Positions 49,303 to 57,163 of a stretch of 64,000 nt of DNA are shown here, piece by piece. The stretch's first letter is position 1, and each line of letters opens with the position of its first letter. The DNA comes from Candidatus Moraniibacteriota bacterium (GTDB taxonomy: Bacteria; Patescibacteriota; Minisyncoccia; Moranbacterales; UBA2206), in contig DMWY01000008.1 of NCBI GenBank assembly GCA_003483065.1, positions 2,177-66,176 of the forward strand, given 5' to 3'. Both the position numbers and the translations under genes were made by a program. The notes below the pieces were generated by a model, which made no database searches, was not told where the DNA came from, and saw only the letters and a program-made list of their open reading frames with translations.

Positions 49303-49905
49303 ATGCTAGAAGATAAGTCAAAAAATGAATTAACTGACAGCGAGCTGGTGGAAATTGTGCGAAACTCGGATCAGGAAAGATATGGCGAAATCATTGAAAG
49401 ATATCAAGGAAAATTATTCGCCTATCTTTTTCGTTTGATTGGTTCACGGGATGAAGCACAAGATATTTTGCAAGATGTTTTTCTCAAGGCCTATCGAAAT
49501 TTGCAAAGTTATGACACGGCGCGAAAATTTTCTTCCTGGATCTATCGCATCGCGCACAACGAAGCAGTCAACTTTATCAAGAGAAGAGCGCTTAAGAGAT
49601 TTATCCCCTGGGAAGATATCGCCGCGACCAAAGACAAATTGGAAATGATGAGTTTTGAAGAGGGGGCAGACAAGGCGTGGCTTCGAAAGGAAATTGGCAA
49701 AGAGGTAAATGTGGCGCTCGACAAAATGCCATTTAAGTATAAGCAAGTTTTGGTGCTCCGCTATTTTTCTGACAAATCATATGAAGAGATAAGTGAAATT
49801 TTGGGAAAGCCGATGAATACTGTGGGCACACTAATCAGTCGCGCCAAGCAAAAACTTTCCGAAGAATTGAAAGGGCAAGATTTGCCATTTGATAATGATA
49901 AATAA
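49303..49905 (+). CDS. ECF-family RNA polymerase sigma factor
   Basis: Region 2 (DILQDVFLKAYRNL...FSSWIYRIAHNEAVNFIKRR) and region 4 HTH (YEEISEILGKPMNTVGTLISRAKQKL). Confidence 0.85.
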   Translation: MLEDKSKNELTDSELVEIVRNSDQERYGEIIERYQGKLFAYLFRLIGSRDEAQDILQDVFLKAYRNLQSYDTARKFSSWIYRIAHNEAVNFIKRRALKRFIPWEDIAATKDKLEMMSFEEGADKAWLRKEIGKEVNVALDKMPFKYKQVLVLRYFSDKSYEEISEILGKPMNTVGTLISRAKQKLSEELKGQDLPFDNDK

Positions 49906-49919
49906 TTTTTGAAATATTT

Positions 49920-50588
49920 ATGGAAGAAAAAAAAGATATAATAAAAGAAAAGGTAATGCAGGCGATAAAAAGCAAGAAAGTGAAAATGCGCAGTCATTTG
50001 GTTTTTATGGCGGAAAAATTGGGACTGGAAAGCGCGCTGGCTGGCGCGATAATTTTCGGGTCGCTTCTAGTGAGTGTCATTTTCTATTTATTGAAAAAAA
50101 CCGGCGCGCTAAAATTTTTGAGTTTGGGAATACCAGGACTCAAAATTTTTCTTCTGACTTTGCCCTATGACTATATCGCGCTATTTATCTTTTTTGTGAT
50201 CTTGGCAATTTATTTCGCCAATCAAATTGAATTATTTTGTGGAAAATGTACGCGGACAGATTCTTTCGCTGTATATTTTTTTGTGGGATCTCTGATTTTG
50301 GGAACTATTTTTGGCATCATTGGAGTGGGGGATTTTCTTCATAGTTGGTCGGGAAAAAATATTCCTCGGGAGAGTGCGATTTATGGTAAGGTGAAAAGTT
50401 TCTCGCAAGAAGAAGTTTTAATTGAAGATGAGAATGGAAAAATGATCAGAGTTTCCATTGAAAAACCGCAAAATGCGATAATCGACAAATACGAAAAAGA
50501 CAAATTTTTGCGCGCGATCGGTTCACGCGACGCCAAGGATAACAGTCTGTTCCACGCGCAAGTTGTGAGGTGTTGTGATGAGGATTAG
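49920..50588 (+). CDS. Putative membrane anti-sigma factor (by position after the ECF sigma)
   Basis: Short cytoplasmic N-terminus, 3-4 TM helices, C-terminal domain. Context-based call. Confidence 0.4.
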   Translation: MEEKKDIIKEKVMQAIKSKKVKMRSHLVFMAEKLGLESALAGAIIFGSLLVSVIFYLLKKTGALKFLSLGIPGLKIFLLTLPYDYIALFIFFVILAIYFANQIELFCGKCTRTDSFAVYFFVGSLILGTIFGIIGVGDFLHSWSGKNIPRESAIYGKVKSFSQEEVLIEDENGKMIRVSIEKPQNAIIDKYEKDKFLRAIGSRDAKDNSLFHAQVVRCCDED

Positions 50589-50742
50589 AAATAGTTGATT
50601 TATTTTTAAATATATGATAATATCTTTCTATCATTGAAAGGTGCCCTGCTAAGGCATTTTTTATTGAACTATATGCCGCGTTCGTCCCCGCCTCGCGTCG
50701 ACGAGCGGTCGCCTCCGCGAGTCGAGGCGGGTAGCCCAATTT

Positions 50743-51003
50743 ATGAATAACTATTTTATATATTTATTAATAAGTCAGGATAAGCAGAGAACGTATACGG
50801 GATTTACTGATAATATAGAAAATAGGATAAAAAAACATAAAACCAAAGGCGTTAGAACAACAAAAAATTTCGGTGATTTCGGTTATATAATATTAGAAAA
50901 AGTTTTGCCTGACGAAAGACTTGCAAGAGAAGCTGAAAAATATTGGAAGTCTGCCTCTGGTAGGAGAAGGATAAAAGAAATATTAAAAAATAAAGAAGAT
51001 TAA
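50743..51003 (+). CDS. GIY-YIG nuclease family small protein
   Basis: YIYLLISQDKQRTYTGFTDNIENRIKKH matches the GIY...YIG core with a conserved Arg and a C-terminal Glu (EAEKYWK). Confidence 0.8.
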   Translation: MNNYFIYLLISQDKQRTYTGFTDNIENRIKKHKTKGVRTTKNFGDFGYIILEKVLPDERLAREAEKYWKSASGRRRIKEILKNKED

Positions 51004-51007
51004 TTAT

Positions 51008-51085
51008 GCCGCGTTCGTCTAGCCCGGTCAGGACGCCAGGTTTTCATCCTGGAAATCATGGGTTCGAATCCCATACGCGGTACCA
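51008..51085 (+). tRNA. tRNA-Glu (anticodon TTC)
   Basis: GCCGCGTTCGTCTAGCCCGGTCAGGACGCCAGGTTTTCATCCTGGAAATCATGGGTTCGAATCCCATACGCGGTACCA. Cloverleaf with anticodon loop TTTTCAT. CCA encoded. Terminator hairpin at 51092-51117. Confidence 0.8.
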
Positions 51086-51114
51086 AACTTGAAAACAGCC
51101 CTTGATGGCTGTTT

Positions 51115-51143
51115 TTGATTTATCGGAGGAAGGGGGGTAGAAT
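51115..51143 (+). promoter_or_regulatory. Conserved island promoter module, copy 1 (TTGATT, 17 nt, TAGAAT)
   Basis: TTGATT tatcggaggaagggggg TAGAAT GGAAGTGTTCAGT. The G-rich spacer and the first transcribed nucleotides are conserved in copies at 53095 and 53498. A second promoter (TTGCCT, 17 nt, TATAAT at 51195-51223) follows in the same leader. Confidence 0.6.
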
Positions 51144-51249
51144 GGAAGTGTTCAGTGAGGATTGGAAAAAATAAAGTTATCCACAGCTCAAAAGTTGCCT
51201 AAAATATCACAGAGTGATATAATATCATCATAACAAACTAAATAAAGTT

Positions 51250-51582
51250 ATGAAAAACAAATATAGTTCACTCGTCATTTTTGAAGATTTTAGGATTCGT
51301 CGTCACTACGACGAAAAAACGGAAACCTGGTATTTCTCGGTAATTGATATTGTTGCCGCTTTGATAGAGCAAACAGAATATAATAAGGCAAAAACATATT
51401 GGACTACTCTCAAGAATCGTTTGAAAAACGAAAAAAGTGAAGTGGTCACAAAATGTGACCAGTTGAAAATGCTGGCTAAAGATGGAAAAATGAGAGATCG
51501 GGATAATGAAATGTCTCAATCGTTTCCATTTTGGGAACAGTTGAATTTGTCAGCAAAAGAAAAAAGATATCAAAAAATTTAA
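51250..51582 (+). CDS. Bro-N domain protein (phage antirepressor-like N-terminal domain)
   Basis: VIFEDFRIRRHYDEKTETWYFSVIDIVAAL follows the Bro-N pattern (F-x-F...iR...g..wF.a.Dva..L). Confidence 0.55.
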   Translation: MKNKYSSLVIFEDFRIRRHYDEKTETWYFSVIDIVAALIEQTEYNKAKTYWTTLKNRLKNEKSEVVTKCDQLKMLAKDGKMRDRDNEMSQSFPFWEQLNLSAKEKRYQKI

Positions 51583-51590
51583 ATTAAATT

Positions 51591-52412
51591 ATGAAAAAAA
51601 TAAACACACAAGGGCTACAAATATATACTTTTCAAAAGAATGAGGGTGACTATATCTCGCTTACTGATATGGCTAAATATAAAGATCCTGAAAGGACAGA
51701 CTATATCATTCAAAACTGGATGAGAAATTATTCTACGATAGAATTTTTAGGTATTTGGGAGAGAATAAATAACCCTAATTTTAACCCCATCGAATTCGAC
51801 GGGTTTAAAAATAAAGCAGGTTCTAATAGTTTTTCGTTGACACCGACCAGATGGATCAGCGCTGTAAATGCAATTGGAATGATAACAAAATCAGGACGCT
51901 ATGGCGGAGGCACTTTTGCCCATAAAGATATTGCTTTTGAATTCGCAACTTGGATATCAGCCGAGTTTAAACTATATTTAATCAAGGAATTCCAAAGATT
52001 AAAAATAGAGGAAACCGAAAGACTAACTCTTGGTTGGGATGCAAAAAGAGCTTTGACCAAAATCAATTATCGCATACACACCGATTCTATCAAGGAAAAC
52101 ATCGTATTGCCACAGCAACTTTCAAAAAAAGATGCAGACATCACCTATGCCAATGAAGCGGATATTTTAAACAAGGCATTGTTTGGGATGACTGCATTGG
52201 AATGGAGAATAAAAAATAAAGGTAAAGAAGGAAACATTCGAGATTACTCCGATGTATATCAACTTATTTGTCTGGCTAATCTTGAAACATTAAATTCGGA
52301 ATTTATAAAAATGGGAATGAGTCAGAAAGAGAGACTGCTCAAATTAAATGAAATAGCTATTGTTCAAATGAGGTCACTTTTGAACAATCCAACTGTGAAA
52401 AAATTGAATTAA
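51591..52412 (+). CDS. KilA-N domain protein
   Basis: N-terminal YISLTDMAKYKDPERTDYIIQNWMRNYSTIEFLGIWE resembles the KilA-N DNA-binding domain; about 150-aa C-terminal domain unknown. Confidence 0.55.
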   Translation: MKKINTQGLQIYTFQKNEGDYISLTDMAKYKDPERTDYIIQNWMRNYSTIEFLGIWERINNPNFNPIEFDGFKNKAGSNSFSLTPTRWISAVNAIGMITKSGRYGGGTFAHKDIAFEFATWISAEFKLYLIKEFQRLKIEETERLTLGWDAKRALTKINYRIHTDSIKENIVLPQQLSKKDADITYANEADILNKALFGMTALEWRIKNKGKEGNIRDYSDVYQLICLANLETLNSEFIKMGMSQKERLLKLNEIAIVQMRSLLNNPTVKKLN

Positions 52413-52416
52413 ATTT

Positions 52417-52926
52417 ATGGAAAAAGAAAATAATCTTGCCTTTATTGATGGACAAAATCTTTATATGGGAACAAGAAAAATAAAAGAACGACCATGGAAA
52501 GTTAATTTGAAGAAATTTAGAATTTTTTTGAAGGATAAATATCATATTCAGACAGCCTACTATTTTCTTGGATTTGTGAATGAGAAGAATCAAGATCTCT
52601 ATACTGAGATACAAGAAGCGGGATTTGTTTTGATTTTTAGAGAACATAATGCTGCTATGATTGGAAAGAAAAAGGGGAACGTAGATTCTGATATTGTTTT
52701 TTCTATTATGAAAAAACTATATAAAAAAGAGGTTTTTGAAAAGGTAGTATTGGTATCTGGCGATGGGGACTATAAGCAATTAGTCGATTTTCTTATCGAG
52801 GAAAAAAGATTTAAAAAAGCTTTATTTCCAAATAGAAAATTCGCTTCGTCATTATATAAAAAACTTGGGTCAGAGTTCTTTGATTTTTTAGATAGTGAGG
52901 CTATAAAAGCGAAGATTATGAAATAA
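52417..52926 (+). CDS. NYN-domain (PIN-like) putative RNase
   Basis: AFIDGQNLY ... DSDIVFSIM ... VVLVSGDGDYKQLVDFL: the three acidic clusters typical of NYN/LabA nucleases. Confidence 0.7.
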   Translation: MEKENNLAFIDGQNLYMGTRKIKERPWKVNLKKFRIFLKDKYHIQTAYYFLGFVNEKNQDLYTEIQEAGFVLIFREHNAAMIGKKKGNVDSDIVFSIMKKLYKKEVFEKVVLVSGDGDYKQLVDFLIEEKRFKKALFPNRKFASSLYKKLGSEFFDFLDSEAIKAKIMK

Positions 52927-53094
52927 AAAAAGGCTCCTTAGGCACCAACACCTTTCGGATCCTTTTCGTCTTTATGCATAAAATATACACCCAAATCAGC
53001 GAAATGTCAACAGTGCTTGAATAAACAATATTTAAACCTATTCATAATACACTTATTTAGACCAAATATTCCACAAAATTTATGAACATATTTG

Positions 53095-53123
53095 TTGGCT
53101 TATTGGGGGAAAGGGGGTAGAAT
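53095..53123 (+). promoter_or_regulatory. Conserved island promoter module, copy 2
   Basis: TTGGCT tattgggggaaaggggg TAGAAT AGAAGTGTTGA. Confidence 0.55.
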
Positions 53124-53200
53124 AGAAGTGTTGAATAATATCGAGAAAACAGAGAGTTTGCACCATTAATTGCGTAGCATAATTAATTTAAAATAAATTT

Positions 53201-53464
53201 ATGGAAAGCATGGAAAATCAAAATAAAATTTGGAAAGGTACGAATTTTTGGAAGGAAGAGATAAAAAAGGCGGGAGTTCTTGACAAGCTTAAATTTTTTA
53301 GCGACGTTATTACTGAAAATAGAGCGCCTCTTAGTTATGGCGATCCGGTTATCACGGATGTTGTGCTTGATGGAGTTGTATGTGATATATATCACACTGA
53401 CAAAAAACCAAATGACACAGGTTGCAGAATATTTATTCACAAAAAAGAGAGTACTGAAAATTAG
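53201..53464 (+). CDS. Hypothetical small protein
   Basis: 87 aa, own promoter and terminator (53475-53497). Confidence 0.35.
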   Translation: MESMENQNKIWKGTNFWKEEIKKAGVLDKLKFFSDVITENRAPLSYGDPVITDVVLDGVVCDIYHTDKKPNDTGCRIFIHKKESTEN

Positions 53465-53497
53465 AAAAATTCACAAAACCGCTATCACTGGCGGTTT

Positions 53498-53526
53498 TTG
53501 ATTTATTGGAGGAAAGGGGGTAGAAT
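53498..53526 (+). promoter_or_regulatory. Conserved island promoter module, copy 3
   Basis: TTGATT tattggaggaaaggggg TAGAAT GGAAGTGTTCAGT. The -35 is fused to the T-run of the upstream terminator, as in copy 1. Confidence 0.6.
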
Positions 53527-53564
53527 GGAAGTGTTCAGTAATTAGTTAAGTAACATACAAAAAT

Positions 53565-54083
53565 ATGAAAATTGGAATTATTTCTGACGTCCATGACAAT
53601 GGACTAAATCTTCTAAAAGCGATAGATATTTTCAAGAAAAAAGAAGTTGAGATTATAATTCATTGTGGTGATTGGGGTTCGCCTGGAGCAGCTTGGCTTT
53701 TCATGAATAATTGTGACATCAGAACAATTTCGGTTTTTGGTAATAATGACAAGGATATGTATCGTTTTTTTACTTATAAAGAAAAGTATAATTGGGATAA
53801 GTTAGAATATCATGGTGAATTTGCAAATTTAGAATTGGAAGGAAAAAAGATTGCGGTTTATCATGGAAATGTTGGCGAGATAACAGAGGCATTGATGCTT
53901 TCTGGAAAGTGGGAAACAGTAATTTCAGGCCATGATCATGTGTCAAAGATAGAATCTGTAAATGGCGTCTTACATATTAATCCAGGAACAATTAATTGTT
54001 TGAAAGCTGGGAAAATCGAGAATAATTTTACGGTTGCGATTTATGATTTAGGAGAAAATAAGGCAGAGATTATTAAGTTGTAA
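53565..54083 (+). CDS. Small metallophosphoesterase (YfcE/MJ0936-like)
   Basis: MKIGIISDVHDN, GDWGSPG, GNND, VYHGN and GHDHV motifs. Confidence 0.8.
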   Translation: MKIGIISDVHDNGLNLLKAIDIFKKKEVEIIIHCGDWGSPGAAWLFMNNCDIRTISVFGNNDKDMYRFFTYKEKYNWDKLEYHGEFANLELEGKKIAVYHGNVGEITEALMLSGKWETVISGHDHVSKIESVNGVLHINPGTINCLKAGKIENNFTVAIYDLGENKAEIIKL

Positions 54084-54189
54084 AAAAGATAGCGATAGTG
54101 ATTAAAATAAATATAAAAATATGACAACAAGAAAAAGTGAAGAAAAAAATACTTGCCCTGTTAAATAATTTTAAATTTTTTAATAGTCT

Positions 54190-54444
54190 ATGTATTACAC
54201 ATATATTTTAAGGAGTGAAAAGGATAATAAAAATTATGTAGGTTATACTAAAAATTTAAAATTAAGATTTGAGGAGCATCAAAAAGGAAAAGTTGAATCA
54301 ACTAAAGATAGAAGGCCATTGAAATTGATATATTATGAAGCATATCTAAATCAGCAGGATGCGACACATAGAGAAAAATATTTAAAAACATATCATGGTA
54401 AGATGTTTCTAAAAAATCGCCTCAAATCTTATTTAACAGGGTGA
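54190..54444 (+). CDS. GIY-YIG nuclease family small protein (second copy)
   Basis: YYTYILRSEKDNKNYVGYTKNLKLRFEEHQKGK ... the GIY-YIG core with conserved R and E. Confidence 0.8.
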   Translation: MYYTYILRSEKDNKNYVGYTKNLKLRFEEHQKGKVESTKDRRPLKLIYYEAYLNQQDATHREKYLKTYHGKMFLKNRLKSYLTG

Positions 54445-54590
54445 ATAAAATCACGAGAGTAGGAAAAACCAGCTTAGCTGTCACTATTCCAATTGAGATG
54501 TATAAAGAATTAGGCTGGAAAGAAAAACAGAAGGTGGTTGTGAAAAGAGTTAGGGGTGGGGTTGAGATTAAGGATTGGAAAAAGATATAA
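54441..54590 (+). CDS. AbrB/MazE/SpoVT-like small DNA-binding protein (49 aa, GTG start overlapping the upstream stop)
   Basis: VNKITRVGKTSLAVTIPIEMYKELGWKEKQKVVVKRVRGGVEIKDWKKI matches the swapped-hairpin AbrB pattern (vrkiGnSlgvtIP.e....l....g..v). Not in the ORF track because it is under 60 aa. Confidence 0.5.
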   Translation: MNKITRVGKTSLAVTIPIEMYKELGWKEKQKVVVKRVRGGVEIKDWKKI

Positions 54591-55375
54591 GGTTATTTAA
54601 AATGGACTTATCTTTCAATATAAAATTAGCTGACAATTATACTAGCTCATCTCAAAAGATAAGAGTTTTGACTGAGGATTGGGTTGATAGGCAAGTTTAT
54701 TGTCCAAACTGCGGGAAGTTAAGTATCGACAGATATGGAAATAATAAACCAGTTGCAGATTTTTATTGTGAAAATTGTAAGGAAGAATATGAATTGAAAA
54801 GCAAGAAGGATAGTATGGGCAAGAAAATTGTTGATGGCGCGTATAGTAAAATGATTGAAAGGCTGGATAGTGTTAATAATCCGAATTTTTTCTTTTTGAA
54901 TTATAGTTTACAAAGTTACAAGGTAGAAAATTTTGTAGTTATTCCGAAACATTTTTTTGTTCCTGAAATTATTGAAAAAAGAAAACCTCTCTCGGAAGAC
55001 GCAAGACGAGCAGGTTGGGTTGGATGCAATATTTTACTTCAAAATATTCCGCAAAGTGGAAAAATATTTTATGTAAAAGACGGAAATTTTGAAAATAAAG
55101 AAGATGTTTTGAAAAATTGGCAGAGAACACTTTTCTTGAGAGAAGAAAAAGAAATTAGTGCGAAAGGTTGGCTTTTGGATGTTATGAGTTGTATTGAGAG
55201 AATAAAAAAACAAAATTTTTCCCTAGATGAAGTTTATGCTTTTGAAAAAGAATTAAAAATAAAACATCCAGACAATAATTTTATTAAGGATAAGATGCGA
55301 CAAAAATTACAGGTTTTAAGAGATAATAATTACATTGAATTTATTAGTCCTGGTAAGTATAAATTAGTCATTTGA
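54575..55375 (+). CDS. DpnI-like methyl-directed (type IIM) restriction endonuclease
   Basis: Collinear with my recollection of the DpnI family: N-terminal catalytic domain with SSQKIRVLTEDWVDRQVYCPNCG ... PVADFYCENCKEEYELKSKK ... NPNFFFLNY ... RKPLSEDARRAGWVGCNI, and a C-terminal winged-helix-like end LQVLRDNNYIEFISPGKYKL. Needs a database search to confirm. Confidence 0.5.
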   Translation: MEKDIRLFKMDLSFNIKLADNYTSSSQKIRVLTEDWVDRQVYCPNCGKLSIDRYGNNKPVADFYCENCKEEYELKSKKDSMGKKIVDGAYSKMIERLDSVNNPNFFFLNYSLQSYKVENFVVIPKHFFVPEIIEKRKPLSEDARRAGWVGCNILLQNIPQSGKIFYVKDGNFENKEDVLKNWQRTLFLREEKEISAKGWLLDVMSCIERIKKQNFSLDEVYAFEKELKIKHPDNNFIKDKMRQKLQVLRDNNYIEFISPGKYKLVI

Positions 55376-55436
55376 CAATTATCGTGAATCGATCAAAAAT
55401 TGATCAGAAATAAAAATTAATTTTCTGTTCAATTAT

Positions 55437-55871
55437 ATGAAAATTTCAAGAGAGTTGGCGATAAGAATATTAAAATATTTAGATGAGCATAAGAATTTTT
55501 ATTTTCCATTTCTAGTTATGTGCAAAGAGCACGCTGAAGGGGATGATGATTTTATAGAAATTGAACCTGAAGAATGGGAAATGATTCAGGAAGATGATAA
55601 GTATCAAACTTTTGAGTTGTGGGAAAATCTGCAAAATTTAGATGAAGAAACGCTTAAACTTTTGGCGAAAGGATTTTTAGAGAAAATTACCAGTGAATCT
55701 TTGGAGAAAAAAATAGAAAAATTAGCGAAAAAATACAGAAAAGAATGGAAAGTGGAATTGTGGGAAAGTGAAGATATTGAAGAGTTTGGGTATAATGAAT
55801 TTATAGGCGGAAAAGCAGAAGGGTGTGAGGAATGCTTGGAGTCGATAAAAAAATATGGAAAAATAGAGTAA
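55437..55871 (+). CDS. Hypothetical acidic protein
   Basis: 144 aa, Glu/Asp-rich, no motif. Sits between the DpnI-like and KAP NTPase genes. Confidence 0.35.
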   Translation: MKISRELAIRILKYLDEHKNFYFPFLVMCKEHAEGDDDFIEIEPEEWEMIQEDDKYQTFELWENLQNLDEETLKLLAKGFLEKITSESLEKKIEKLAKKYRKEWKVELWESEDIEEFGYNEFIGGKAEGCEECLESIKKYGKIE

Positions 55872-55888
55872 ATTAAAAACGATTTAGT

Positions 55889-57163
55889 ATGGCAGATGGA
55901 TTTGTAAAAAATTATAAATTATTAGAAGAAAACAGCAAGGCTGATGATCTTTTGAATATTGGTGATTTTTGCGAAAAATTTACTAAAAAACTCAATTCAT
56001 TACCTAACTCATCGATTATTGCTTTGGTTGGAAAATTTGGTAGTGGTAAAAGTACAATGTTGCATAAAATAGCAACTAATTATTTGGCCACTTACGTATG
56101 GTTTGAATTTGATGCATGGAAATATCCGGACAGAGAAAATCTCTGGGAGGGATTTATTTTGGATTGTGTTGAAAAGATCAATCCAAATCATTTTTTAAGT
56201 GCGAAAAAAGAGATTGAAGGGAAGTCTAATGATGATAAAAAAACTTTGATTAATGTCTTATCTAAAATACCGGGGTTAGCAGTATTAGAAGGGTTTAATC
56301 ACTTTCTTGAAACATCTCCAGCAAAGCGTGTAAATGATGTACAGAGGATATTTAGAGAACAGCTCGATAATATAAAAAAAGATATTTTCGTTATCATTGA
56401 AGATATAGACAGGTCAGGCGATTCAGGCGCATTCTTTTTAGAGACGCTTAAACAATTTTTAAAATCATCTAATCTCTTAAATAAAGTTGTAATAATCGTT
56501 CCAATAGCTAATGAAAATTATTACAAAAATATCGATTCATATCTAAAGTGTATTGATTATTTTGATTTTTTTGAGCAAAAAAATATAAAATTAGATAAGT
56601 TTGTGGGCGAAGTTATAGATAACTCATTGCTCAGTGGGCAATTAAATAGAAAAGGCGATAATAAATTGATTTGGAGTGGACCAAGTAGAAAAGGGCAAAC
56701 GATTAGTTTTTTAGAAAAGCTTTTTGATGAAATGCCAGAGATGAATATGCGGTTACTTAAGTTAATATTGAGAAAAGCAAATCTGGCCTATAAAAATCAG
56801 ACTTCAGATGGACACGACCCAGATTTTCGGGTTACTTTATGCATAGAAGCATCGAAATATTTCAAAATTAATGGAAAGGAGGAATTGAGTTATTTTGATG
56901 ATTTTAGAGAAAGGGGTGTTATAATCAGAGGTAACATATTTTCCTCATTCTTAATTGCAATGTTAAATAATAAAGATTCTATTGTAGGTATTGATTATAC
57001 CAACGGAAGAGAAATCAAGAGATTATTGACATCGCCCTATGATTTTAAATTTATAAAAAGGGAGGACAATGACAAAATCCAATGGCCATCATATCCCTGG
57101 AGTTATGGCAGATTTAGTGGCGACTCTGGTTTTGGTGTGGCAAGTTTTTATTGCGAATATTAA
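55889..57163 (+). CDS. KAP-family P-loop NTPase
   Basis: IALVGKFGSGKST Walker A immediately followed by FEFDAWKYPD (the KAP F-x-x-W-x-Y motif). Walker B IFVIIEDIDRS. Confidence 0.6.
   Translation: MADGFVKNYKLLEENSKADDLLNIGDFCEKFTKKLNSLPNSSIIALVGKFGSGKSTMLHKIATNYLATYVWFEFDAWKYPDRENLWEGFILDCVEKINPNHFLSAKKEIEGKSNDDKKTLINVLSKIPGLAVLEGFNHFLETSPAKRVNDVQRIFREQLDNIKKDIFVIIEDIDRSGDSGAFFLETLKQFLKSSNLLNKVVIIVPIANENYYKNIDSYLKCIDYFDFFEQKNIKLDKFVGEVIDNSLLSGQLNRKGDNKLIWSGPSRKGQTISFLEKLFDEMPEMNMRLLKLILRKANLAYKNQTSDGHDPDFRVTLCIEASKYFKINGKEELSYFDDFRERGVIIRGNIFSSFLIAMLNNKDSIVGIDYTNGREIKRLLTSPYDFKFIKREDNDKIQWPSYPWSYGRFSGDSGFGVASFYCEY

Follow-up and report, generated by a model that had tools for sequence, protein, structure and literature searches.

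A mobile GIY-YIG nuclease cassette at tRNA-Glu genes of Patescibacteria and its association with a dispersed 45-bp palindrome

We analyzed a 64,000-nucleotide stretch of contig DMWY01000008.1 from a Candidatus Moraniibacteriota bacterium, referred to here as the window, and focused on a compact unit at positions 50672-51004 that directly precedes an intact tRNA-Glu gene. This unit is a mobile nuclease unit under selection that sits at tRNA-Glu genes and leaves the tRNA undisrupted. It is probably a small selfish GIY-YIG cassette that targets tRNA-Glu and spreads in a homing-like manner. A tRNA-Glu 5' fragment, which is split by a palindrome and would act as a decoy, is followed in it by the gene for a GIY-YIG nuclease and, 4 nt further on, by the intact tRNA. 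Among close relatives the same site is either filled with this cassette or empty, and a nearly identical cassette precedes a second tRNA-Glu gene. Loci from other genomes are denoted L001, L002 and so forth; features lie on the forward strand unless stated otherwise.

Results

Architecture of the cassette

The 15-mer TATGCCGCGTTCGTC consists of TAT and positions 1-12 of tRNA-Glu. It forms a left direct repeat at 50672-50686 and a right direct repeat at 51005-51019, where it leads into the intact tRNA. This shared sequence had been noticed in a first-pass annotation, and a search of the window allowing up to two mismatches confirmed it and returned exactly these two copies. The chance expectation is 0.02 matches, and none of 100 shuffled sequences held two or more. 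Immediately behind the left repeat lies a GC-rich imperfect palindrome of 45 bp with a 9-bp GC outer stem. The hairpin had been recognized before, with an end at 50735 that overshoots by 4 nt; its true span is 50687-50731. It holds the most GC-rich 40-nt stretch of the window, which overall has 35.6% GC.

Downstream of the palindrome, the hexamer TAGCCC (50732-50737) corresponds to positions 13-18 of tRNA-Glu and is identical to 51020-51025 of the intact gene. Since the tRNA sequence resumes after the hairpin, the upstream copy is a split tRNA-Glu 5' fragment covering positions -3 to 18, interrupted by an insert of exactly 45 nt without a duplicated base. The insert sits precisely 3' of the 5' strand of the D-stem. 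The gene for an 86-aa stand-alone GIY-YIG nuclease (50743-51003) starts 11 nt after the palindrome and lies, as originally described, exactly between the repeat copies, whose spacing is 333 bp. The intact tRNA-Glu(UUC) gene with encoded CCA was called by ARAGORN at 51008-51085, 4 nt after the stop codon, and the Rfam tRNA model matches 51008-51082 with 63 bits (gathering score 29). A 3' tRNA fragment was looked for downstream of this tRNA and none was found.

An Rfam search of 49500-52000 (E ≤ 1) gave no match to a group I intron or another described RNA family at the hairpin or the fragment. A sub-threshold group I intron match on the reverse strand (51677-51867; 18.7 bits versus 50, E = 0.095) lies inside a KilA-N gene and is probably due to chance. 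Folding of the hairpin region had been proposed as a further check; it revealed neither a tRNA-like nor an attachment-site (att)-like structure, and the fold energy is ordinary for the composition (z = -1.3 to -1.5 for 50672-50745 and for the hairpin alone). The significance of the hairpin lies in its recurrence elsewhere and not in its thermodynamics.

Filled and empty alleles at tRNA-Glu(UUC)

Corresponding loci of relatives were obtained via orthologues of the 222-aa gene upstream of the cassette. Three of them (L063, L064 and L065) show matching gene order with tRNA-Glu(UUC) straight after the intergenic region and represent empty sites; L002, like the window, is a filled allele with the 333-bp insert. 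The intergenic sequence of ~85 bp is near-identical in filled (window, L002) and empty (L063, L064) alleles up to ...GCCGCGTTCGTC. Past this point, the empty alleles run into TAGCCCGGTCAGG..., which is the remaining tRNA, and the filled alleles into the palindrome, the ORF (open reading frame) and the second 15-mer. Homology between the window and the empty L063 resumes downstream of the tRNA. With homologous flanks on both sides, filled and empty alleles thus differ by a clean indel of 333 bp, at whose borders lies the 15-bp direct repeat. As the relatives hold an uninterrupted tRNA, alignment of the orthologous tRNA-Glu loci, which had been suggested as a check, identifies the GIY-YIG unit as an insertion and bears out the proposal that it integrated at the 5' end of the tRNA. 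Across the first 57 nt of the intact tRNA, filled and empty alleles are identical. A conserved site that is filled in some genomes and empty in others, between homologous flanks, is a feature of free-standing homing endonuclease genes.

The AT-rich intergenic region itself (50589-50671) is thus near-identical in four genomes, whereas the adjacent coding gene shows just 81-86% nucleotide identity and a synonymous divergence (dS) of about 0.8-0.95 (window, L002, L064). The region is either a strongly constrained promoter or leader, or it was homogenized by recombination.

Horizontal spread and selection

A protein-similarity scan with one genome per species yielded ten loci. In L001 and L003, a cassette ORF of 95-97% identity with the same palindrome and fragment, and with different upstream flanks, precedes tRNA-Glu(CUC). 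L003, a filled CUC gene, and L064, an empty UUC gene, are contigs of one metagenome-assembled genome (MAG), JBAQNP01. The size of the cassette is constant at 333-335 bp in five genomes at these two loci. The hexamer following the hairpin of L003 reads TAGCCC, the local tRNA TAGTCC, which would fit a fragment and hairpin that travelled together with the cassette. This evidence is weak, because the tRNA-Glu(CUC) of the close relative L001 itself reads TAGCCC. In light of the L003 hexamer, the earlier idea of an integration that duplicated its target stands as far as the insertion is concerned; the 15-bp repeat need not be a duplication made by the integration.

The ratio of nonsynonymous to synonymous divergence (dN/dS) of the cassette ORF is 0.04-0.10, indicating purifying selection, and the copy in L003 is pseudogenized by a premature stop at codon 15. 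The dS of the cassette was compared with that of the adjacent upstream host gene in matched genome pairs comprising the window, L002 and the L064/L003 MAG; L001 entered without a host-gene comparison. Values were 0.19-0.37 for the cassette versus 0.79-0.95 for the host gene, i.e., about 3-5 times lower. As the cassette dS is far below that of the host gene, the cassette is younger than its host genomes and has spread horizontally, independent of the host genome.

These data also bear on two explanations that do without a selfish element. Strong purifying selection would suit a domesticated host gene that is co-transcribed with tRNA-Glu and serves the cell in repair or defence, with the fragment being incidental. 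A defence-like island adjoins the locus, and the protein has a weak PADLOC match to PDC-S14 (E = 3.5e-4). However, the gene is present in only some close relatives, three of which have empty sites, and is broken in L003; its locus differs between genomes, and its dS resembles that of horizontally transferred genes. We consider domestication quite improbable. Even less can be said for a static rearrangement, in which a local tandem duplication of tRNA-Glu left an upstream copy to decay, with an unrelated small ORF in between and nothing mobile. Pseudo-tRNA fragments do occur beside intact tRNAs without an ORF (L017, L033, L036), and decayed fragments exist, e.g., in L001 with three mismatches. 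Yet the empty sites consist of a single tRNA with no trace of a duplication, the same cassette occupies two different tRNA-Glu loci, and both the low dS and the purifying selection on the ORF argue against such a history. The empty sites and the two-locus distribution largely refute this explanation; we give it hardly any chance.

In L001 (2795-3123) and L003 (2930-3258), the ATG of TATGCCGCG, which is the 5' end of the tRNA, can be read through the palindrome in the frame of the GIY-YIG ORF, so that an N-terminally extended product of ~110 aa is possible. A 124-aa gene call (protein P0002) may reflect an extended reading frame of this kind. In the window, the frames of the tRNA 5'-end ATG and the GIY-YIG ORF differ.

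The GIY-YIG protein

Pfam PF01541 matches residues 3-75 of the 86-aa protein with 52.4 bits (cut-off 22.6, E = 6.6e-14). No second Pfam domain was found in it, and hence no linked DNA-binding or specificity domain. Residues Y7, Y18, G20, R28, H32 and E65 are invariant in alignments of 11 and 10 diverse cassette sequences. The protein is a bare catalytic domain in which the catalytic residues are kept.

An AlphaFold2 model with a predicted local distance difference test score (pLDDT) of 91.8 has the alpha/beta fold of GIY-YIG nucleases and matches the UPF0213 structure 1ZG2, the catalytic domain of I-TevI (template modelling (TM) score 0.61, probability 1.00), UvrC-N and Slx1 (TM-scores 0.6-0.64); the Foldseek E-values of these matches are weak (≥ 0.013) owing to the small domain. 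By sequence, too, 1ZG2 (UPF0213 protein BH0048, E = 1e-5) is the top match in the PDB, and the match to Slx1 is weak. Sequence and predicted fold place the nuclease in the UPF0213/YhbQ/Slx1-like branch.

Recurrence of the layout

All ten loci of the protein-similarity scan have a tRNA downstream of the ORF, at a distance of 6-57 nt overall and of 6-14 nt in nine cases. It is a tRNA-Glu at eight loci, and at each of these, one or two GC-rich hairpins interrupt a tRNA-Glu 5' fragment on the upstream side. Other Patescibacteria, as well as Omnitrophota, have the same layout of a tRNA fragment with hairpin(s), a GIY-YIG gene and an intact tRNA. Its fragment ends at position 18 in the window type, at 33-35 in L004-L007 and L068, and at ~52 in L010 from Omnitrophota. 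After interruption by the hairpins, the pieces of the direct repeat measure 15+6 nt in the window and 22+13 or 8+14+13 nt elsewhere. Every ORF-bearing case with the 45-bp palindrome has 11-21 nt between the palindrome end and the start codon. Other GC hairpins occupy the corresponding place in L009, L010 and L067, the last of which encodes a protein of 51% identity and has a different hairpin of 29 nt.

The design is also found on other isotypes: on tRNA-Arg in L009 and on tRNA-Leu(UAG) in L032, where the nuclease belongs to another clade and the acceptor stem of the fragment is unlike that of the intact tRNA. L053, L056, L067 and L068 are, together with L032, further cases of recurrence. A mirrored, tandemly repeated version on tRNA-Val is present in Flavobacterium procerum (L008, 2200-3400). 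Two intact tRNA-Val genes are followed there by two tandem units, each composed of a GIY-YIG ORF and a degenerate tRNA-Val that lacks its first 7 nt, carries the same 19-nt hairpin in both orientations and is miscalled by ARAGORN as a 69-nt tRNA-Lys. By analogy, this pattern resembles segmental amplification of the SegB type.

tRNA genes are classical integration sites, and the 15-bp repeat could be taken as the attL/attR core of an integrase-mediated genomic island that has shrunk to the GIY-YIG gene. The defence-like island downstream of the tRNA would be in line with this, as would a second repeat structure: in L005 (3330-3500), tRNA-Glu is followed by ~150 bp of extra sequence, with an 18-nt direct repeat of the tRNA 3' end, TTCCCCGTAGCGGTACCA, at its borders. 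This segment is missing from L006 (1873-1890), and L010 has a similar 12-nt repeat. In both L005 and L010, the repeats belong to small insertions of their own at the tRNA 3' end, and the one in L005 is att-like. The 333-bp unit, in contrast, holds the GIY-YIG ORF only, so that the combination of an integrase inside and att repeats at the borders that marks tRNA-att islands was not found. Its constant size in five genomes at two loci, the position of its repeat at the tRNA 5' end, the interrupted fragment carried with the cassette and the same compact layout across phyla all speak against an island remnant, which we regard as highly improbable.

At three further loci, L017 (1150-1700, reverse strand), L023 (7370-7900) and L033 (300-560), an intact tRNA (Glu, Leu or Thr) is nested in another tRNA of identical or similar type that has been disrupted; the 5' part of the latter, with the palindrome, and its 3' part lie on either side, and no GIY-YIG ORF is present. 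The inner tRNA of L033 lies between 11-bp inverted repeats.

A dispersed family of 45-bp palindromes

The hairpin of the window had been described as isolated, which it is not: it is one member of a dispersed palindromic family. A metagenome search by a pattern with 26 specified bases retrieved 52 loci, representing 43 distinct contexts. tRNA-derived fragments account for 14 of the 43, nine of them adjoining a GIY-YIG ORF and five adjoining an intact tRNA without an ORF (L017, L023, L033, L036 and L057/L061). Open frames of at least 190 aa account for 25, and in 21 of these the palindrome is read in one orientation and frame. The palindrome equals exactly 15 codons with no stop codon in any frame, and the dominant frame encodes PASTRG(N/D/G)DRSSTRGG; the peptide connected with the 45-nt insert is PASTRGNDRSSTRGG. 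Host genes, which were named by reading the sequences and not by profile search, comprise those for ATP synthase alpha (atpA), uvrA (two different sites), uvrC, recG, glmS, recJ, tsaE and prmC; L013, L014, L026, L039, L048 and L052 are among the loci with an in-gene palindrome. Two orthologous UvrA proteins carry the insert at different sites, each matched by an exact 15-residue gap in the other. In-frame insertion into protein-coding genes, absent from orthologues, is a feature of Rickettsia palindromic elements (RPE). The copy in L049 lies immediately in front of the Walker A motif in an ABC ATPase, a place at which an insert would be expected to do harm.

The sequence of the element is invariant in 30 of 45 columns. 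Variation is concentrated at positions 21, 26 and 27, which belong to the central asymmetric part and are the only columns in which more than 2 of 35 copies deviate from the consensus. Neither a target motif or consensus nor a target duplication was found in 35 contexts, save T-richness on one side, which is due to coding-strand bias. The target-site duplication of MITEs (miniature inverted-repeat transposable elements) is lacking; the tRNA copies are exactly 45 nt long with no duplicated base. In tRNA-Glu fragments the palindrome occupies at least two positions, after position 12 and after position 22, which indicates more than one insertion event. Hairpin orientation was considered as a marker of independent insertions and rejected, as L068 and L004 share the same position in opposite orientations; the palindrome can probably flip in place. 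We estimate, as a rough figure of our own, that tRNA DNA makes up well under 1% of such genomes, and one third of the contexts in tRNA fragments would accordingly represent a large enrichment.

Other GC-rich peptide inserts that are absent from orthologues occur in L048 (UvrA, around KGPARHASLAGTSSRSDAGG) and L043 (FPAYRTGRQFPCLPDRQA), and L024 holds a degenerate second copy near residue 35. This suggests further in-frame palindromic families in the same genomes.

The close association of palindrome and nuclease raises the question of whether the two form a two-component mobile system, in which the Slx1/YhbQ-like nuclease mobilizes the 45-bp palindromes. The cassette would then be the autonomous copy, the solo palindromes non-autonomous passengers and the tRNA D-arm the preferred entry site. 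In nine of 43 contexts, the palindrome stands 11-21 nt before a GIY-YIG start codon, with two clades of GIY-YIG genes and two isotypes of tRNA represented among them. The two positions in tRNA-Glu fragments, the estimated enrichment in tRNA-derived contexts, the replacement by other GC hairpins in L009, L010 and L067, and the structure-specific nuclease Slx1 among the closest folds of the predicted model would add to this. On the other hand, the palindrome does not bracket the ORF as terminal repeats would but stands as one unit on a single side of it, the 35 contexts reveal no target-site duplication or target consensus, and GIY-YIG genes are not enriched near in-gene palindromes, with 2 distant cases only. 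Moreover, we know of no GIY-YIG transposase. We regard a two-component system as unlikely. If true, it would imply that 45-bp insertions, precise and scar-less, enter the DNA of tRNA D-arms and, in-frame, essential genes, and would amount to a new GIY-YIG-centred transposition or homing chemistry in bacteria of the Candidate Phyla Radiation (CPR).

Transcription and a homing-like mechanism

Promoter-like sequences were found only 5' of the tRNA fragment, in the conserved intergenic region. The pair TTGATT and TAATAT with a 17-nt spacer (50595-50623) agrees with 8 of 12 consensus positions, which is under the scan threshold, and was read directly from the sequence; an overlapping site (50605-50634, 9 of 12) was listed by the scan. 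The former is presumed to be the native tRNA-Glu promoter, which would now drive the fragment, hairpin, ORF and tRNA as a single transcript. Such transcription from the tRNA promoter is suggested because the cassette has no room for a promoter or terminator of its own, its stop codon being 4 nt from the tRNA. Cleavage by RNase P at the tRNA 5' end would release the cassette transcript. A terminator-like hairpin with a T-run (ACAGCC...GGCTGT TTTTT, 51095-51116) lies 3' of the tRNA; it was likewise read directly, is not among the scan hits and aligns with the empty-site L063 and with L002.

For the spread of the selfish cassette, we propose that a break in the tRNA-Glu gene of a recipient is repaired from a filled donor, either by homing-like double-strand-break repair or by homology-facilitated recombination. 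The right homology arm would be the intact tRNA, and the left (micro)homology arm the portable tRNA 5' fragment. The break would presumably be supplied by the nuclease, in the DNA of the tRNA gene or in a structured DNA form. We infer homing via tRNA-internal homology, as this would allow entry into paralogous tRNA-Glu genes with unrelated flanks without inactivating the tRNA. A portable fragment in the role of a homology arm would also account for the hitch-hiking TAGCCC, and targeting by homology for a locus specificity that an 86-aa protein could hardly encode alone.

The palindromes would be an independent, dispersed family of precise 45-bp insertions. Their build-up in the fragment could reflect targeting of tRNA D-arm DNA, a function as left end or operator of the cassette, or survivorship, in that a broken direct repeat would reduce precise excision.

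Several points weigh against a homing cassette. The protein lacks a DNA-binding domain such as gives I-TevI and the Seg enzymes their specificity, its nuclease activity is a prediction from sequence, and its score with the NCBIfam model TIGR01453 (group I intron endonuclease) is 19.5, far below the cut-off of 56. In classical homing the filled allele is protected, whereas no immunity is evident here: as the first 57 nt of the tRNA are unchanged in the filled allele, a tRNA-directed nuclease would not be excluded from its own locus. The left homology is no longer than 15 nt. Hairpin-bearing fragments stand beside intact tRNAs without a GIY-YIG ORF (L017, L023, L033, L036, L061), and the structure therefore does not strictly depend on a nuclease gene in cis. 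Some of the empty alleles could have arisen by precise excision between the direct repeats and would then not be ancestral, and binning of the MAG could have wrongly united L003 and L064. Finally, viral contigs contained no copies of the hairpin and no relatives of the nuclease.

A second GIY-YIG gene and the downstream island

The first-pass annotation had listed a second GIY-YIG cassette at 54190. A second GIY-YIG gene is indeed present (54190-54444, 84 aa, 29-30% identical to the first), but no tRNA, tRNA fragment or GC hairpin adjoins it. Its stop overlaps a MazE/AbrB-like ORF, and a DpnI-like gene is adjacent. Relatives of this gene are tRNA-adjacent elsewhere (L009, L032, L046). A copy with 81% identity lies in a different context in L011 (8100-8560), directly upstream of an apparent ruvB, and shares with the window gene a leader of ~45 nt, CCCTGTTAAATAATTTTAAATTTTTT, which in L011 is duplicated 110 nt upstream. 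The second gene looks like a mobile cassette, too.

It is part of a region downstream of tRNA-Glu (51250-57163) whose genes are of a kind found in defence or mobile islands. Among them are matches to the PADLOC candidates PDC-S13/S04 and PDC-S22 (KilA-N) as well as genes for an NYN-domain protein and a DpnI-like restriction enzyme; a 424-aa protein (55889-57163) has weak PADLOC matches to the defence-associated NTPases QatA, PifA and PtuA. Gene content downstream of the tRNA differs in the relatives L063-L065.

Discussion

The closest known parallel to the cassette is found in phages. The phage GIY-YIG endonuclease SegB cleaves inside tRNA genes, shows a statistical co-localization with tRNAs and causes tRNA+segB units to be duplicated as segments in a recombination-dependent manner (PMC13096335; PMC2330249). 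Like SegB of phages T4 and T6, the cassette nuclease is encoded by a free-standing gene among tRNA genes, and it shows presence/absence polymorphism, horizontal spread and partial tRNA duplication. Unlike SegB, the cassette resides in a cellular CPR chromosome, and it is a fixed 333-bp unit with its own tRNA 5' fragment and palindrome. Seg enzymes and I-TevI have an extra DNA-binding region, whereas the cassette protein, known from its sequence, comprises the catalytic domain only in 86 aa.

The UPF0213/YhbQ/Slx1 (URI-domain) branch contains stand-alone proteins of the same size class. Slx1 requires Slx4 and a RING domain, both of which are absent from the cassette. To our knowledge, no member of this branch has been described as mobile in connection with tRNAs. 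A different parallel is the atp6 case of Allomyces in fungal mitochondria, where a mobile endonuclease ORF reportedly carries a replacement piece of its host gene. There as here, the ORF sits in an essential gene, a duplicate segment keeps the function and a displaced pseudo-fragment remains; the Allomyces element affects the 3' end of a protein gene in an organelle, the cassette the 5' end of a tRNA gene in bacteria.

The 45-bp palindrome shares with RPE and with the GC clusters of yeast mitochondria that it is short and dispersed in an AT-rich, reduced genome, and with RPE that it is inserted in-frame in protein-coding genes. It is of a different sequence family, is much shorter than RPE-1 and is hosted by the phylum Patescibacteria. 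Compared with both groups, it is strongly biased to one orientation and frame (PASTRGxDRSSTRGG), is without target duplication where the uninterrupted sequence is known, and is strongly enriched in tRNA fragments beside GIY-YIG genes. A full-text literature search brought up neither small tRNA-linked GIY-YIG cassettes of bacteria, the SegB papers alone being relevant, nor palindromic in-frame elements of CPR. The 45-bp element is apparently undescribed so far.

The palindrome family adds 15 residues to core proteins such as ATP synthase alpha, UvrA/C, RecG and GlmS across Patescibacteria, which matters for annotating and modelling CPR proteins and for tracing recombination in uncultured lineages, and it may represent a new mechanism of mobile DNA. 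As for the cassette, a minimal selfish nuclease gene of 333 bp in total would colonize an essential, single-copy-type tRNA gene without killing the tRNA, supplying its own tRNA 5' homology and using the promoter and processing signals of the tRNA. It would thereby extend the association of SegB with tRNAs to the streamlined cellular genomes of CPR bacteria and to a nuclease without a specificity domain.

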